Assembly: GCA_016217555.1 (NCBI GenBank)
Contig: JACRHW010000006.1
Coordinates: forward strand, 18,153 to 82,152
Direction of reading: 5' to 3'
Source: Parcubacteria group bacterium
Lineage (GTDB): Bacteria > Patescibacteriota > Minisyncoccia > UBA6257 > JACRHW01
DNA: 64,000 bases
Within the stretch, counting starts at the first letter, position 1. The number at the start of each line of letters is the position of its first letter. The translations under genes were made by a program, and so were the position numbers. A model generated the notes under the pieces. It worked only from the letters and a program-made list of their open reading frames with translations. It did not search any database and was not told the DNA's origin. Positions 55,375 to 64,000 of this stretch are shown in pieces.

Positions 55375-57336
55375 ATGTTTTTTAAAAAATTAAAGACGAT
55401 GGAAGAAGAAAAGAAGAAAAATAGTGTTAGGGGGGTTATTGGCATAACCGTGAAGGGGGTGGGGTATGTTACGACCACTGAACCGGGTGAGGATATTCTT
55501 ATAGAGCCTCAGTTTTTGAATACTGCCTTGCATGGTGACGAGGTGGAGATTTCTTTGTTTCCTTTAGTAGAAGAGGAGAAGACAAGCGGAGAGGTGGTGG
55601 GTATTATAAAAAGAGCGAAAACAGAATTTGTGGGGACAGTGGACAAGAGAGAGGGGGCTAGTATCGCCTTTGTGCTTCCCGATGACAAGAAGATGTATAA
55701 GGATATTTTTTTGTCACCTGCTGAATCGAGAAAGGTACACAACGATGGGAAGGTTCTGGTGGAGATTAAAAAATGGGATGATCCAAAAAGGAATCCTGAG
55801 GGGAGAGTTATAAAAGTACTTGGCAAGAAGGGGGATAACAACGTTGAAATGGAATCTATTGTGCTTGAGAAGGGATTTCAAATTAAGTTTCCAAAAAATG
55901 TGGAAAAGGAGGCGAATGCACTGGGAAAACGATCAAAACCCATATCAAAAAAAGAAATTGTAGGAAGAAGAGATTTTAGAAATGTTACTACATTTACTAT
56001 CGATCCTGCAGATGCAAAAGATTTTGATGATGCTATCTCTTTTCAAAAAAAATCTGACAATATTTTTGAAATTGGGGTGCATATTGCTGATGCTTCCTAT
56101 TATGTAAGAGAAGGGAGTGCTGTTGATAAAGAGGCTAAGCATCGAGGGGTTTCTATCTATTTAGTAGATAGAACCATTCCTATGTTGCCAGAGGTGCTGT
56201 CTAATGATATTTGTAGCCTCAATCCACAGGAGGATAAATTGACGTTCTCGGCAGTGTTCACTATGGGGGCAGATGCTATTATTTCTAATGTTTGGTTTGG
56301 AAGGACGATAATCCATTCAAATAAGAGATTCGTTTATGAAGAGGCACAAAAGGTTTTGGATGATAAGGGGGGTGTCTATTATGATGAGCTGAATGCTTTA
56401 AACAAATTAGCACATATTTTTAGGGAAAAGAGGAGGAGTGCGGGGGCACTAGATTTTGAAAAAGAAGAGGTCAAATTTGTACTTGATGTGGCAGGAAAGC
56501 CATTGCACGTTATTCAAAAGCCACGGCTCGATATACACAAACTTGTTGAAGAGTTTATGATTTTGGCTAATAAAGAAGTTGCTACCTACCTTGGGGGTGA
56601 GGTGAAAAGAATACGTAAGGGAGCTTCTATCTACCGTGTCCACGATGTGCCCAAAAAGGAGTCTATAAAAGACCTTTTGTTTCTTTTGAGGACATTGGGT
56701 CACGAGATAGAATCTGAGGGTGGGAGTATTTCATCAAAAGAATTAAATAATCTCTTTGAAAAAATTAAAGGAAGTACTGAGGAGGTTCTCATAAAAACAG
56801 TTGCTATGAGATCTATGGCGAAGGCGGTGTATTCTATAAACAATATTGGTCATTATGGACTAGCTCTCGAAAATTATACGCATTTTACCTCTCCCATCAG
56901 AAGATATGCTGACATCTTGGTGCATAGAATTCTCGATAAACATCTCAGAGGAGAATATTTAAATGACATGGAGGTTGAATGGCTTCATAGCTTTGCTGTT
57001 GCCTTATCTGAGCGAGAGGTTGGTGCGGTGGAGGCGGAGAGGTCTTCTATTGCTTATAAACAGGTTGAATATATGATGGATAAAATAGGAAATGAGTATG
57101 GGGGAGTAATTTCTGGTATTACAAATTTTGGAGTGTATGTTGAGGAGTTGCAGACCATGGCGAGCGGGATGGTGAAGTTTAAAGACATGACGGATGATTT
57201 CTATGTGTTTGATAAGGCAAGCTCCTCTCTTATAGGAGAAAAACATAAGAAAAAATACTCTATTGGAGACCGCGTAGCAATAAAAATTATCGCAGCCGAT
57301 CTAGAAAGAAAAACTTTAGATTTCGCATTTGTTTGA
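55375..57336 (+). CDS. rnr: ribonuclease R / RNase II family exoribonuclease
   Basis: Cold-shock N-domains; RNB catalytic motif VHIADASYYV; C-terminal S1. Confidence 0.85.
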   Translation: MFFKKLKTMEEEKKKNSVRGVIGITVKGVGYVTTTEPGEDILIEPQFLNTALHGDEVEISLFPLVEEEKTSGEVVGIIKRAKTEFVGTVDKREGASIAFVLPDDKKMYKDIFLSPAESRKVHNDGKVLVEIKKWDDPKRNPEGRVIKVLGKKGDNNVEMESIVLEKGFQIKFPKNVEKEANALGKRSKPISKKEIVGRRDFRNVTTFTIDPADAKDFDDAISFQKKSDNIFEIGVHIADASYYVREGSAVDKEAKHRGVSIYLVDRTIPMLPEVLSNDICSLNPQEDKLTFSAVFTMGADAIISNVWFGRTIIHSNKRFVYEEAQKVLDDKGGVYYDELNALNKLAHIFREKRRSAGALDFEKEEVKFVLDVAGKPLHVIQKPRLDIHKLVEEFMILANKEVATYLGGEVKRIRKGASIYRVHDVPKKESIKDLLFLLRTLGHEIESEGGSISSKELNNLFEKIKGSTEEVLIKTVAMRSMAKAVYSINNIGHYGLALENYTHFTSPIRRYADILVHRILDKHLRGEYLNDMEVEWLHSFAVALSEREVGAVEAERSSIAYKQVEYMMDKIGNEYGGVISGITNFGVYVEELQTMASGMVKFKDMTDDFYVFDKASSSLIGEKHKKKYSIGDRVAIKIIAADLERKTLDFAFV

Positions 57337-57398
57337 TTAAAGTTAGTAGAGATGATATATAAACTCCGTGTTCTTTGACACACGAAAGGAGAAAACAC

Positions 57399-59246
57399 AT
57401 GGCAAAAAATAGTACAGGAGCTGAACATGTTCGATGGGATCTCGGTATTTTATACTCTGGTCTCGATGATCCACAAATAGATGCAGACGTGCATACGCTT
57501 GTCGAGAAGTGTAAAAATTTTTCGATAGTTTATAGAGGAAAACTTCGAGAAACACTTTCTGGAGCGATTTTAGATTATGCAGAAATGAGTATGCTTCAAG
57601 ACAAGATAATGCTTTTTTTGTATTTAAACCAAAGTACAAACGTTGCCGATGTTGCCATAAAAGCGAAAATTGCTGAAGTAGAGAGGATCATGAGTGAAAT
57701 TTCGGGTGAGTATATGACCTTCTTTATGATTGAACTTGTCGCACTAGACGATGAAGTACTTACCAACTGTTATGCGACGAATCCTCTTGTCGCTCGGCAT
57801 CGTTCGTGGATTGAGCATTGTCGAGTTTTCAAACCGCATCTATTAAGTGAACCTGTTGAATCCGCGCTTATTAAACGTTCACCTTTTGGATCAGGTGCGT
57901 GGAGTGAATTCTTTGATGAATTAGAAGCGGACATCGAGGGAGAATTCCAAGGAGAAAAAAAGACACTTACGGAGCTTCTTCACTTACTTTCTGAATCTAA
58001 AAATAAGGATGAAAGAACCAAACTCCTCCAGGTTATTAATGACAGTCTCAAGGGTACGTTTGCTAAGTATTCAGCACAGACATTGTATATGGTTGCTGGG
58101 GCTACTTCGGTTGAAAATCGTGAGCGTTCTTATAAGCACCCTATGGAAGGGGCCAATAAATCGAATCAAATACCGGATACTGTCGTTGATGTTTTACACG
58201 AAACAGTAAATAGAGTGGCTGGTCCTCTTGCAAGACGCTATTATCGTCTTAAGGCTGCACTTTTGGGCCTACCTATTTTGGGATGGGGTGACCGCAATGC
58301 GCCCATGCCTTTTTCTGATACAACAACTATTCCTTTTGATACTGCGAAGGGGATCGTACTTGCGGCGTATGAAAGTTTTAGTCCAACATCAGCAGAGCTT
58401 GTAAAAACATTTTTCGATCAAAACCATATTGATGCCCCAGGGATTAGGGGTAAACGTGGGGGTGCCTTTAACTACTCTGTGGTTTTGCCGGGCAGTACTC
58501 CCGTGTCTTATGTGTTTCTCAACTATCTTGGTTCAAGTCGGGATGTTATGACACTTGCTCATGAGTTGGGTCATGGGGTGCATGGATTACTTGCGGGTAA
58601 GGCGCAGGGGGCCCTTATGTTTCATGCTCCTACTGCCTACTGTGAAACTGCTTCTGTGTTTGGGGAGATGACAACATTTAACTTTCTCAAGGAACAGCTT
58701 GTTCTAGAAGGGGATAAAAAGTCTCTTCTCGCGCTTGTTATGGGAAAAATAGATGATGTGATTAATACAGCCGTGAGGCAGATTAGTTTTTCTAATTTTG
58801 AGCGGAGACTGCATGGCATGGACTCGTCATATCAAACATGGAGTGAACCAAAGAAGTTTTCTGTGGAGGAGTTAAATGTTCTTTGGCTTGAGACGACAAA
58901 AGAGCTCTACGGAGTCGACGGAGATGTATTTACTTATGAAAATGCAGACCATCTTTGGTCTTATATCTCCCATTTTCATAGACCATTTTACGTTTATGGG
59001 TATGCATTTGGAGAACTTCTTACACAAAGTCTTTATGCAAAGCAAGCTGTGATTGGTGATCGTTTTGAACCGCTTTATCTCGATCTTCTAAAATCTGGAT
59101 CTACAAAAAATGTTATCGAATTACTTGCTCCGTTTGGCCTTGATCCCACAAGGGAAACATTTTGGGTTGACGGTATTGATAATGGTTTGGGAGCAATGGT
59201 TCTCAAGGCTGAAGCATTGGCACACGAATTAGGGCTTTTGCATTAA
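57399..59246 (+). CDS. pepF: oligoendopeptidase F (M3B)
   Basis: Zinc motif HELGHGVH; start at Met9 preceded by AAAGGAG. Confidence 0.85.
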   Translation: MAKNSTGAEHVRWDLGILYSGLDDPQIDADVHTLVEKCKNFSIVYRGKLRETLSGAILDYAEMSMLQDKIMLFLYLNQSTNVADVAIKAKIAEVERIMSEISGEYMTFFMIELVALDDEVLTNCYATNPLVARHRSWIEHCRVFKPHLLSEPVESALIKRSPFGSGAWSEFFDELEADIEGEFQGEKKTLTELLHLLSESKNKDERTKLLQVINDSLKGTFAKYSAQTLYMVAGATSVENRERSYKHPMEGANKSNQIPDTVVDVLHETVNRVAGPLARRYYRLKAALLGLPILGWGDRNAPMPFSDTTTIPFDTAKGIVLAAYESFSPTSAELVKTFFDQNHIDAPGIRGKRGGAFNYSVVLPGSTPVSYVFLNYLGSSRDVMTLAHELGHGVHGLLAGKAQGALMFHAPTAYCETASVFGEMTTFNFLKEQLVLEGDKKSLLALVMGKIDDVINTAVRQISFSNFERRLHGMDSSYQTWSEPKKFSVEELNVLWLETTKELYGVDGDVFTYENADHLWSYISHFHRPFYVYGYAFGELLTQSLYAKQAVIGDRFEPLYLDLLKSGSTKNVIELLAPFGLDPTRETFWVDGIDNGLGAMVLKAEALAHELGLLH

Positions 59247-59819: not shown

Positions 59820-61009
59820 ATTCTACCACAACTATTTAAAAATAGCCAGAAAAGCCATTTTCGTATTTTTGTCGACTTCACAAGAGATTTTAATACCCGA
59901 GGTGTAACTATCAAGATCGACCCTTCAATGATTACATCCACTTGACATACTTGTTTATTTGAATACAATAAGAGAACAAACAATGATAAATAGTAGAGAA
60001 CAATTTCACGGCTTTTGAGGGATGGGTTTTTTATATACCCTTCTGTATGCCGCTGTTCTCCTAGAAGCGGTATTTTTTTAGCTCGTTAGCTCGTTAGCTC
60101 GTTAGGAAATCCTAAGAAGCTCATAAGCTAGGAAGCTAATCGGAAGATGATGGTGAGGACTGATGTTTGAAAAGTGAACGTAATTTCGTAGATCGCATTT
60201 TCCCATCGATCGGCCTCACAATATTTTATTATGAGGAGAATCGAAGGGTATATTTTAAAGATCAAACGATTTCCCCAAGTCCTTGCATGTAGTCGTAAAA
60301 GACGATGGCAAGGCTATTGTATGAAATACACCCTTCCAGGTGTCATGCAATAAATCCCGTTAGAGACAGAGGCATTGCGAGTCTTCGTGGTCTCTAACGG
60401 GATAAATATCTATCTGGTTGGATACGGGTAATAATAAGGGCACACGGTGGATGCCTAGACACTAAAAGGCGATGAAGGACGTAGCGTAGCTGCGATAAGT
60501 CTCGGGGAGGTGCGTAGCAACCTTTGATCCGGGAATTTCCGAATGGGGCAACCCAACACAGCAAACCTGTGTTACATGACTACTTGATAGCATGTGCAAA
60601 CCCGCTGAAGTGAAACATCTCAGTAAGCGGAGGACAAGAAAAAATTTTTTATTTCCTTAGTAGCGGCGAGCGAAAAGGAAACAGCCTAAACTTATCGATT
60701 TGAAGCAATTTAAATTGGTAAGGGTTGTAGGGGAAAACACTTTTTAACTTTTTAGTTTTTAGTCTTCTGGTCTTTACTGATCAGAGGCTAAAAGCTAAAA
60801 GCTAAAATAAAGAGTTACAAAATAATTTTTTAGCTGAATCTGTCTGGAAAGCAGAGCCAAAGAGGGTGATGGCCCCGTAAGCGAAAAGAAATTATCTCTT
60901 GTTTTTTAATCTTCTGAGCAATTGGAAGGTATCCCTAAGTACACCGACAAACGCAAGCGTTGGTGGAAGCATCCCACACTACAGGGAAAGGCTAAATACT
61001 TTTAGTGAT

Positions 61010-61176: not shown

Positions 61177-61237
61177 CCCGCCCTCTGTGCGTGTAGTTCT
61201 TTTTTCAAAGAAAGGAAACGTGCTTAGAGGGCGGGGG
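61177..61237 (+). other. IVS-like hairpin insertion in 23S with stem CCCCGCCCTCT / AGAGGGCGGGG
   Basis: Absent from E. coli alignment; same stem sequence as the insertion at 61819-61917. Confidence 0.5.
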
Positions 61238-61818
61238 GAGGCAGAGCGAAAGCGAGTCTTAATAGGGCGTAGCATTATCAGCTCTTTAGCTCTTTAGTCT
61301 AATAGTTTAATAGAATTTCTAATGAGCTAGCGGATTAATCGGCTAATGAGCTTATATTGCAGGCAGTGCGAAACAGACCCGAAGCCGGGTGAGCTTGCCG
61401 TGGCCAGGATGAACTTCGACGAAAGTCGAAGAGAGGTCCGAACCGGTTGGTTGTGCAAAACCTTCGGATGAGTCGCGGCAAGGAGTGAAAAGCTAATCGA
61501 ACTCGGTAATAGCTGGTTCTCTCCGAAATAGTTCTAGGACTAGCCTTGGGACAACTACGTGTGGGGGGTAGAGCACTGGATGATTGGTAAAGGGCTTCGG
61601 CTCGGCCGATCAATCAAACTCCGAATACCCATACGACTATCCCGGGAGTTAGACTGTGGGGGCTAAGCTCCATGGTCAAAAGGGCATGAACCCTGATCTT
61701 CATCTAAGGTCCCTAAATTTAGACTAAGTGTAAAGGAAGTGATAAGCCGAAGACAGATGGAAGGTTGGCTTAGAGGTAGCCATCCTTTAAAGAGTGTGTA
61801 ACAACTCACCATCATATC

Positions 61819-61917
61819 CCGCCCTCTAAGCTCTTTGATTTTTGTTTAATTTATATGACGAAGATTAAAGCAGATTAAGAGGATAATGCCCTAAATCGAA
61901 GGGCATAGAGGGCGGGA
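61819..61917 (+). other. IVS-like hairpin insertion in 23S with stem CCCGCCCTCT / AGAGGGCGGG
   Basis: Absent from E. coli alignment; nested GCCCTAAATCGAAGGGC hairpin. Confidence 0.5.
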
Positions 61918-62742
61918 TTGGCTCATTGCGCCCAAGATTTATCGGGACTAAGTCTAATACCGAAGATAAGAATTTCAATGTTTTATTACATTGATCTGGT
62001 AGGAGAGCATTTCAAGTGCTGCGAAGGTTGATTCGTGAGGACGACTGGAGCGCTTGGAAGAGAGAATGCTGATATGAGTAACCACAAGCACGATGAGAAT
62101 TCGTGCCCCCGTAAATCCAAGGTTTCCGTGGCAATGGAAGTCAGCCACGGGTTAGGCGACCCTAAGGCAATGGTGAAAACCGCAGCCGATGGACAGCCGG
62201 TTAATATTCCGGCCCTCTACTATAACGTTCGATGGAGTGACGGAGGAAATAAGTGGGAAGGGATCAATGGTTATTCCCTCATTGGAGTCAAGAGCTGTGC
62301 ACTAGGCAAATCCGGTGCACTACCTTTCATGGTGAAGTTCGGACTTTGAAGATAGCTTGGATTATATCTAAGCAATTCCCGTGAAGAGCCTTCCGAGAAA
62401 ACCTTCTAAGAGTTAAGGTATAGTGGATTCGTACTGTAAACCGACACAGGTGGATGAGGCGAGTAGCCTCAGGGGAACGGGTGATTTCTCGTTAAGGAAC
62501 TCGGCAAAAAAGCGACCGTAACTTCGGGATAAGGTCTGCCCCGCGCAAGTGGGGCCGCAGCGAAAGTTTCCCTAGCGACTGTTTACCAAAAACACAGCTC
62601 CCTGCTAACTCGTAAGAGGATGTATAGGGGGTGACGCCTGACCAATGCGAGAAGGTTAACGGTGCAGGTGTGTGCAGCAATGTACATGCTTAGTGCCCGA
62701 AGCCCTCGTCAATGTCGGCGATAACTATAATCGTCCAAAGGT

Positions 62743-63012
62743 GAATTGCATTGCCTTTGTAAAATCTAGCTATATGCTGGAAACTCTGAAGTATCCGGTA
62801 CTACTTGAAAAAGTAAAAATGTATCCGGTGCAGACAACCAGCAGGAAAGATTTCATGGTTTTTATGCTATGAAAAATCCTCAGAGACTACACGCTAGATC
62901 CGCTAGTTTGCGGAAAGACATAGTCCGAACTCTATGGCGACATAGAGAGATAGGCAGAAATGTTCTATCCAGAATCATGGAGATTTGTTTCCAGATTCTA
63001 GTAACATAATTG
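62743..63012 (+). other. probable group I intron at 23S position 1931 (E. coli numbering)
   Basis: Removal restores ..CCAAAGGU|AGCGCAACUCCUUGUCGGG (cf. CCUAAGGU|AGCGAAAUUCCUUGUCGGG); 5' exon ends in U paired to IGS GCCUUUG (7-bp P1 with U-G); intron ends in G. Confidence 0.6.
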
Positions 63013-63506
63013 AGCGCAACTCCTTGTCGGGTAAATTCCGACGTGCATGAATGGCGTAACGACTGGGGAACTGTCTCAACGAGAAGCCCGGTGAAAATGC
63101 GACACCAGCGAAGACGCTGGTACCCTATAGCGGGACGAAAAGACCCCGGGAGCTTTACTGTAGCTTGATATTGGGTTTACGTCTTAACTACGTAGCGTAG
63201 TGAGGAGAGGTTGAAGGTTCGATTTCGGTTGGACTGGACTCGTCAATGAAACACTCATTTTTTAAGATGTATATTCTAACCTTTACGGAAAAACCGTGAG
63301 GGGACAGTGTCTGGTGGGCAGTTTTCGTGGGGCGCGATCCTCCCAAAGAGTAACGGAGGAGTTTATCAAGGTCAGCTTAGCTTGGATGGAAATCAAGCTG
63401 GACGTGTAAAGGCACAAGCTGGCTTAACGGCAAGGCATACAAGCCGCGCCGATGCGAAAGCAGAACTTAGTGACCCGATGGTCCTTTGTAGAAAGGCCTG
63501 AGACAT

Positions 63507-63542
<36 letters not shown>

Positions 63543-63673
63543 GGTCCGAGAGTCCCTATCGACGACCAGGTTCGGCACCTCGATGTCGGCTCATCTTATC
63601 CTGGGACTGAAGAAGGCCCCAAGGGTTTGGCTGTTCGCCAATTAAAAAGATACGCGAGCTGGGTTCAAACCGT

Positions 63674-63973
63674 TAAGAGACTAATTTCATGTATTTGAGA
63701 TTGATTTTGGTTTTTTAACAGTTTGAACCCCGAGGACAAAGACATAATAACGGCGGCATCTAAACAGTAATGTTTGGTGAAAAGCTAACTAATATCGGTG
63801 AAATCCTTATACAATCAATGAGGACAATACCGAGGGAACGCTTCCAAAAGAAGTAGCCCGTAGAGACTTATACGTTAGCCATCCTTAATGTGAGGATGAA
63901 GATATAGTCCAATGCACATAGTAATATGTGGAAATCCTTCTTGGTTTAAAATATCCATAGAAGGACTAACATG
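63674..63973 (+). other. probable intron (group I-like) at 23S position 2593
   Basis: Removal restores GGGUUCAAACCGU|CGUGAGACAG (cf. GGGUUUAGAACGU|CGUGAGACAG); 5' exon ends in U, insert ends in G; internal GUUUGAACC complementary to exon GGUUCAAAC. Confidence 0.5.
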
Positions 63974-64000
63974 CGTGAGACAGGTTGGTCTCTATCTGCT

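Follow-up and report, generated by a model that had tools for sequence, protein, structure and literature searches.

The stretch of DNA analyzed here (the window; 64,000 nt) comes from a metagenome-assembled genome (MAG) of a member of the Parcubacteria (CPR), deposited in GenBank as "Parcubacteria group bacterium" with locus tags HZA35_. Nine proteins of the window were traced to this MAG by exact look-up, on a contig of 82,818 bp, and DNA run SRR12113407 contains the same organism. A G+C content of ~41%, the placement of nearly all genes on the same strand, and the absence of a 16S gene upstream of the 23S gene are CPR-like genome features, and the LSU exons of the window find their best matches among CPR loci. 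The 23S rRNA gene is of the bacterial type and lies on the plus strand, starting at 60424 and running past the window end at 64000 (LSU_rRNA_bacteria, 1884.6 bits; alignment with the E. coli 23S gene). Upstream of it lie genes for RNase R (55375 to 57336) and an M3 oligoendopeptidase (57375 to 59246) and a 178-amino-acid (aa) open reading frame (ORF) on the minus strand. Neither a 16S gene nor tRNAs were found directly upstream, between 55375 and 60423, so that the rRNA genes do not seem to be linked.

The feature under study interrupts the 23S gene at 62743 to 63012. A reading made earlier from the sequence alone (the sequence-only reading) had placed a 270-nt insert at these coordinates, after 23S position 1931, and pairwise alignment with the E. 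coli 23S gene returned a single 270-nt insertion with exactly these ends. The E. coli strain used as the reference is 4 nt short upstream of the insertion point; in canonical numbering, anchored on the modified positions Psi1911/1915/1917 and m5U1939, the insert follows U1931. It is flanked by …UAACUAUAAUCGUCCAAAGGU upstream and AGCGCAACUCCUUGUCGGG… downstream, with U62742 as the last nucleotide of the 5' exon and A63013 (E. coli A1932) as the first nucleotide of the 3' exon. The last nucleotide of the insert is G63012, corresponding to the terminal G (omega G) of group I introns. The alignment thus agrees with the earlier claims that excision restores the conserved exon sequence, that the 5' exon ends in U, and that the insert ends in G.

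The same 23S gene contains other insertions. Four were identified by comparison with E. coli. Those at 61177 to 61235 and 61818 to 61916, in the 5' half of the gene, form long hairpins (z-scores of -6.1 and -5.5) that have a GC-rich basal stem in common (CCCGCCCUCU… …AGAGGGCGGG), and they look like paired RNase III-type intervening sequences. Such sequences are known in 23S helices 25 and 45. Two AU-rich insertions of ~104 and ~82 nt, at 60737 to 60840 and 61270 to 61351, probably represent expansion or intervening sequences; in the first, three GCUAAAA repeats pair with UUUUUAG repeats in a long hairpin.

Further downstream, a second ORF-less group I intron of 300 nt occupies 63674 to 63973, after U2593, with its boundaries fixed by the conserved exon sequence. 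Rfam Intron_gpI matches it with 63.4 bits at 63736 to 63931. Position 2593 is the classic I-CreI site. Introns at LSU/2593 are of the IA3 type (PMC6125680). A canonical short P1 is available to this intron, in which C63670-U63673 pair with G63753-G63756 and a U·G pair stands at the splice site; the guide side sits in an ACGGCGG motif that is conserved in relatives. The intron also contains, 45 nt in, a stretch (63718 to 63730) complementary to the 5' exon GGGUUCAAACCGU (63661 to 63673), with 12 of 13 positions paired and a perfect run of 10 bp. The same long exon-binding stretch (ACGGUUUGAAUCC) is found in the CPR relatives L144, L195, L163, L178, L130, and L031, and it might extend P1, offer an alternative pairing, or guide folding. 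We rejected the idea that this 13-position pairing, which places a U·A pair at the splice site, is an aberrant P1, since the ACGGCGG motif provides the canonical U·G P1 in all relatives.

Group I fold of the insertion at position 1931

The sequence-only reading had interpreted the 270-nt insert as a group I intron and had named an Rfam Intron_gpI covariance search as a way to check this. That search (RF00028) gave 65.9 bits, above the gathering score of 50 (E = 1.7e-14), with the full model (positions 1 to 253) aligned to 62733 to 62947. The single-sequence fold of the insert had a z-score of -4.7 relative to shuffled sequences, and together with the Rfam E-value this puts the insert far beyond chance expectation. 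The minimum-energy fold of the insert alone did not recover P3, P4, or P7, however, and it was therefore dropped as a model of the intron structure in favor of comparative folding. For this we built an alignment of the window intron and 17 relatives at the same position that also lack an ORF (18 sequences in all) and derived a consensus with RNAalifold, which gave P1, P3, P4, P5/P5a/P5b, P6/P6a, P8, and P9; the P7 pseudoknot and P9.1 were added by hand. Standard pairs filled 94.9% of the 1,267 cells of the consensus fold, versus 33 to 39% when the 3' partners were slid by one to three columns. Compensatory changes on both sides were present at 47 of the 72 consensus pairs in this alignment, and values as high were not obtained in any of 500 column shuffles. 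Of the 72 pairs, 70 form in the window sequence; one of the other two falls in an alignment gap, and one is a U·U where P8 meets its loop. The core of the window intron is thus complete. The P3-P7 core that a group I identity had led the sequence-only reading to expect can accordingly be folded, with P3, P4, P5, P6, P7, P8, P9, and P9.1 all formed.

All elements of the fold lie on the plus strand. The 5' strand of P1 (62736 to 62744) consists of the last 7 nt of the 5' exon and the first 2 nt of the intron, and its 3' strand (62751 to 62759) includes the internal guide sequence GCCUUUG (62753 to 62759; nucleotides 11 to 17 of the insert). The earlier description of a guide located 10 nt into the insert and forming a 7-bp P1 was correct: the guide pairs with the exon sequence CAAAGGU (62736 to 62742), and pairing of 62743-62744 with 62751-62752 extends the helix to 9 bp. 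The U62742·G62753 wobble at the 5' splice site is invariant, being present in 18 of 18 aligned introns. At the other end, a G before AGCG closes the intron in 14 of the 18. A candidate P10 strand, UUGCAUU (62746 to 62752), is predicted from the sequence to pair with AGCGCAA of the 3' exon (63013 to 63019); this pairing is weak (six of seven positions pair, with one internal C×A mismatch), and its register differs in relatives. P2 is absent, P1 and P3 being separated only by UAAAA.

P3 is formed by 62765 to 62770 and 62893 to 62898 (6/6 pairs in the window), and five of its six pairs show compensatory changes among relatives. The P4-P5 domain (62776 to 62842), which is also backed by covariation and whose pairs all form in the window, comprises P4 (62776-62780/62838-62842), P5 (62785-62787/62832-62834), P5a (62791-62801/62821-62831), and P5b (62802-62804/62813-62815), so that P5/P5a/P5b span 62785 to 62834. 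It is followed by P6 (62843-62846/62877-62880), which carries the P6a hairpin (62851-62856/62869-62874), the whole occupying 62843 to 62880. The 5' strand of P7 (62883 to 62889) consists of G62883, a bulged A62884, and GACUA (62885 to 62889), and it pairs with 62921 to 62926, just after J8/7 (AAGACA), to form a pseudoknot with P3. All six P7 pairs form in the window, and two of them show compensatory changes among relatives; by analogy with group I introns of solved structure, G62885-C62925 is presumed to be the guanosine-binding pair. P8 is a hairpin at 62899 to 62914 (62899-62903/62910-62914). The 3' part of the intron folds into P9 (62930 to 62947; 7 bp with a GCGA tetraloop at 62937 to 62940), P9.1 (62950 to 62968; a GAAA tetraloop at 62957 to 62960 and a bulged U62963), and P9.2 (62971 to 62999; 62971-62976/62994-62999 and 62978-62983/62988-62993), the last of these taken from the single-sequence fold.

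Relatives of the intron and its endonuclease-bearing sibling

We scanned one genome per species across bacteria and archaea for the 5' exon followed within 3 to 33 nt by GCCUU, and we found at least 120 loci with introns at position 1931 (L1931). The window intron is homologous to more than 120 L1931 introns; it is 73% identical over 233 nt to the intron at locus L018, and L022 and L012 are similar. Among the matches listed, the insertions fall into two size classes, ~250 to 330 nt and ~620 to 750 nt, and both share sequence after P1 with the window intron (GCCUUAGUAAAAUCUGGCUAUAUGCUGGAA…). The hosts listed include many Acidobacteriota, Proteobacteria, Chloroflexota, Chlamydiota, Nitrospirota, Gemmatimonadota, Actinomycetota, and others, which points to a much wider occurrence of L1931 introns among non-CPR bacteria than the "few species" of the older literature would imply. 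Such introns are also known from Thermotoga, Simkania, and Chlamydomonas chloroplasts. In a Spirochaetia MAG (L076), the longest ORF of a 729-nt L1931 intron (115 aa) matches the YCII-related domain (PF03795, 5e-10) instead of a homing endonuclease; group I introns do not usually carry such a gene.

One exon-guide pair is informative with regard to the fit between intron and host. The exon position equivalent to E. coli U1926 is an A in the window (A62737), and the guide nucleotide opposite, U62758, matches it. The search pattern left this pair free. Over the at least 120 scanned loci and the window, exon A was accompanied by guide U in all five cases, which among the matches listed were three CPR lineages (L039, L089, and L100), the window itself, and one locus labelled only "bacterium" (L031). 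Exon U was accompanied by guide A at 111 of 115 loci among the matches listed, and the other four guides had G or U. The guide sequence thus covaries with the exon variant of the host.

The sequence-only reading had described the insert as lacking an ORF, and the longest ORF that we found within it, of 46 aa, has no Pfam match; no homing endonuclease was found in the window intron. The relatives of 620 to 750 nt encode single-motif LAGLIDADG_1 proteins (E = 1e-22 to 1e-25). We considered whether the 46-aa ORF might be a gene remnant and rejected this, as its likeness to the ORFs of the relatives (…NPQRLH…) is the translated P6-P7 core. Without an encoded endonuclease, the intron is no longer autonomously mobile.

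We found the closest relative by scanning metagenomes for the exon and guide variant of the CPR type, a search that returned 73 loci. This locus, L141, is a 1,451-nt contig from a Hainich groundwater metagenome (ERZ1292633), and its 3' exon is identical to that of the window at 344 of 348 positions (~99%). Its L1931 intron is much longer than that of the window, at 729 nt. We compared the two introns by BLAST blocks because a global MAFFT alignment misplaced blocks. The two agree at each of the first 33 nt (33/33; P1 to P3), and over the last 141 nt they show 17 differences (88% identity). All 15 of the differences that could be assessed are in unpaired or loop positions or keep the pair intact. 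They include two double compensatory changes: C62903-G62910 in P8 is U-A in L141, and G62979-C62992 in P9.2 is A-U. The simplest reading of this pattern is that the intron fold is still under purifying selection.

The additional length of the L141 intron is due to coding sequence. L141, L110, and others have an ORF-bearing insertion of 440 to 460 nt between positions ~107 and 130 of the window intron; in L141 the ORF encodes a 162-aa LAGLIDADG_1 protein (6.2e-22), starts in P5b, and occupies the P6 loop, in the exact place held by the P6a hairpin (62851 to 62874) in the window. When the L141 endonuclease was used as a query in tblastn, only 13 residues were found in the window (62812 to 62850), where the ORF overlaps the ribozyme core, and this 13-codon stretch is still present in the window only because it is part of that core. 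In endonuclease-bearing relatives, the P5a-P4-P6 strands encode the LAGLIDADG N terminus (…SGADNQQER…; window 62812 to 62850, L141 intron positions 102 to 590), a dual-coding stretch that specifies a protein segment as well as part of the RNA fold. Read most simply, the data point to one element that exists with and without its endonuclease gene among very close relatives, with the window carrying the version without it.

L141, which is read on its reverse strand, differs from the window in another respect. The 374 nt that precede its L1931 intron might be taken for plain exon, but alignment revealed a separate, ORF-less intron at position 1917 (L1917; 123 to 360, 238 nt, P1 AACUAU/GUAGUU), followed by a 14-nt mini-exon (AAUCGUCCAAAGGU) and then by the L1931 intron (375 to 1103). 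This twin arrangement was present at 15 metagenome loci, and the window does not have the L1917 intron. The P4-P5 region of the window intron (62776 to 62846) is 96% identical over 70 nt to P4-P5 of the L141 L1917 intron (plus strand, 1226 to 1294), versus a match over only 33 nt to the L1931 intron of L141 itself. This similarity suggests that domain exchange or site switching may have taken place between the L1917 and L1931 intron families. Near-identical P4-P5 regions at the two sites were also seen elsewhere, between L135 (1917) and L158 (1931) and between L163 (1917) and L159 (1931).

Classification among known 23S introns

The claim that 1931 is a known group I insertion site agrees with the literature, CPR bacteria included (PMC11270868, PMC6125680, PMC1995217). 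[quoted passage not shown] In that survey, 1931 is site 23IS7, which includes the I-ShaI intron, and about one-third of the CPR group I insertions have no annotated ORF. The window intron resembles those CPR 1931 introns in clade, site, Rfam family, and the association of its relatives with LAGLIDADG_1; it differs from the 691-nt I-ShaI intron in being only 270 nt long and ORF-less, although the absence of an ORF is not unusual (PMC11270868). Archaeal introns at LSU/1931 were found with an IB4 model and those at LSU/2593 with an IA3 model (Nawrocki et al. 2018, PMC6125680). The LSU/1931 IB4 introns of DPANN and other archaea share the site, several have similar sizes (~280 to 330 nt), and canonical group I folds were predicted for them, but their hosts are archaeal and the host here is bacterial (PMC6125680). 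L1931 introns were further described as having no P2 and a complex P5 region (Haugen et al. 2007, PMC1995217), and the Synechococcus C9 introns at this site have both properties, as does the window intron. Introns of the Synechococcus C9 kind often stand alongside L1917 and L2593 introns in one gene; the Synechococcus C9 copies carry LAGLIDADG genes, whereas the window has L1931 and L2593 introns, both ORF-less, and no L1917 intron.

The intron therefore belongs to the L1931 lineage, and we apply the IB4 subgroup label (GISSD) on the basis of homology and site, following PMC6125680. Because its site, fold, and host clade match the published descriptions, it is a further copy of a known kind; CPR group I introns at 23S positions 1917, 1931, and 2593 have already been catalogued, and the copy in the window is an ordinary member.

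Proposed splicing pathway and alternative explanations

Taken together, the data are very likely best explained by an L1931-lineage group I intron that splices by the standard pathway, lacks an endonuclease, and is retained because it has to be spliced. We found no departure from the standard group I pathway and propose that pathway here, its steps being inferred from what is established for group I introns. The precursor rRNA would fold to form the P3-P9 core, and an external guanosine would dock at the G-site in P7 (G62885-C62925, beside the bulged A62884). This guanosine would then attack the bond after U62742, which the guide (62753 to 62759) would present in the U·G wobble. The terminal G63012 would next take the G-site, with the 3' exon aligned through the weak P10 (62746-62752/63013-63019). 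Joining of the freed 5' exon to A63013 would restore the helix 69-71 sequence of domain IV and release a linear intron of 270 nt. The predicted ligated junction joins …CCAAAGGU to AGCGCAAC…, which can also be written as …AAUCGUCCAAAGGU joined to AGCGCAACUCCUUG…. On this proposal, the window intron would match the intron of a close relative except that its P6 loop holds no LAGLIDADG gene, and it has most likely been kept intact only because splicing is required for the 23S gene to give a working ribosome.

An endonuclease-less intron might instead be kept for a host-level reason, such as a throttle or checkpoint on ribosome assembly, or, in a related version, might have been rebuilt by exchange of P4-P5 with an L1917 intron. 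The organism may have only one rRNA operon. We regard such readings as unlikely; purifying selection on the fold once the endonuclease gene had been lost, and the mosaic pattern as well, would be expected just as much of a purely selfish element that has to splice for its host to survive.

It is also conceivable that the group I intron at this position has decayed, is no longer spliced, and stays in the mature 23S rRNA as an expansion of domain IV. The L1931 intron of Simkania was reportedly described as unspliced by Everett and colleagues in 1999, and this would be a published precedent for retention; moreover, the endonuclease gene, the loss of which usually precedes ribozyme decay in the intron life cycle, is gone from the window. 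Decay is difficult to reconcile, however, with core helices that are all intact (70/72 pairs), with differences from the closest relative that spare the pairs and include compensatory doubles, and with a guide that tracks the host exon at a site in the conserved helix 69-71 region. The reported absence of CPR rRNA insertions from transcripts (PMC11270868) also argues against retention. Given an intact and selected fold, we consider retention in the mature rRNA to be quite improbable.

The possibility that an intron from a co-occurring strain or species was joined to these 23S exons during assembly has to be weighed because the sequence is a MAG, in which rRNA genes are often break or chimera points. 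The intron is a mosaic relative to the sibling contig L141, and an independent Logan assembly, a 2.6-kb contig with the neighboring upstream ORF, ends before the rRNA gene. Nevertheless, both exon junctions are exact, guide U62758 fits the unusual exon A of this host, a combination seen only in CPR-type exons among the matches listed, and the sibling contig, from another study, has an identical intron 5' end at the same site. Since the guide fits the exon variant of the host and the sibling shares the junction, a chimera is hardly plausible. Finally, the IVS-like long hairpins elsewhere in the gene indicate that rRNA insertions are tolerated in this organism. Even so, an intervening sequence of the RNase III type, which would be excised with no joining of the exons and leave a fragmented 23S rRNA, is highly improbable here. 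The insert is not a simple long hairpin on a helix tip but a multihelix, pseudoknotted fold with a group I covariance match, P1, the P7 pseudoknot, a terminal G, and homology to endonuclease-carrying group I introns.

The endonuclease-free, splicing-dependent group I intron that we favor carries little weight on its own, because introns at 1931 with and without LAGLIDADG genes have already been documented in organelles, several groups of bacteria, archaea, and specifically CPR bacteria. For annotation, the 23S gene of this MAG consists of three exons within the window, and the introns must be removed for phylogeny or probe design. The window and L141 together form a natural pair, one ORF-less and one endonuclease bearing, with exons that are ~99% identical, in which the cycle of homing-endonuclease gain and loss can be viewed. 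If the exchange of P4-P5 with a neighboring L1917 intron is true, the L1917 and L1931 introns of CPR bacteria would make up one recombining pool.
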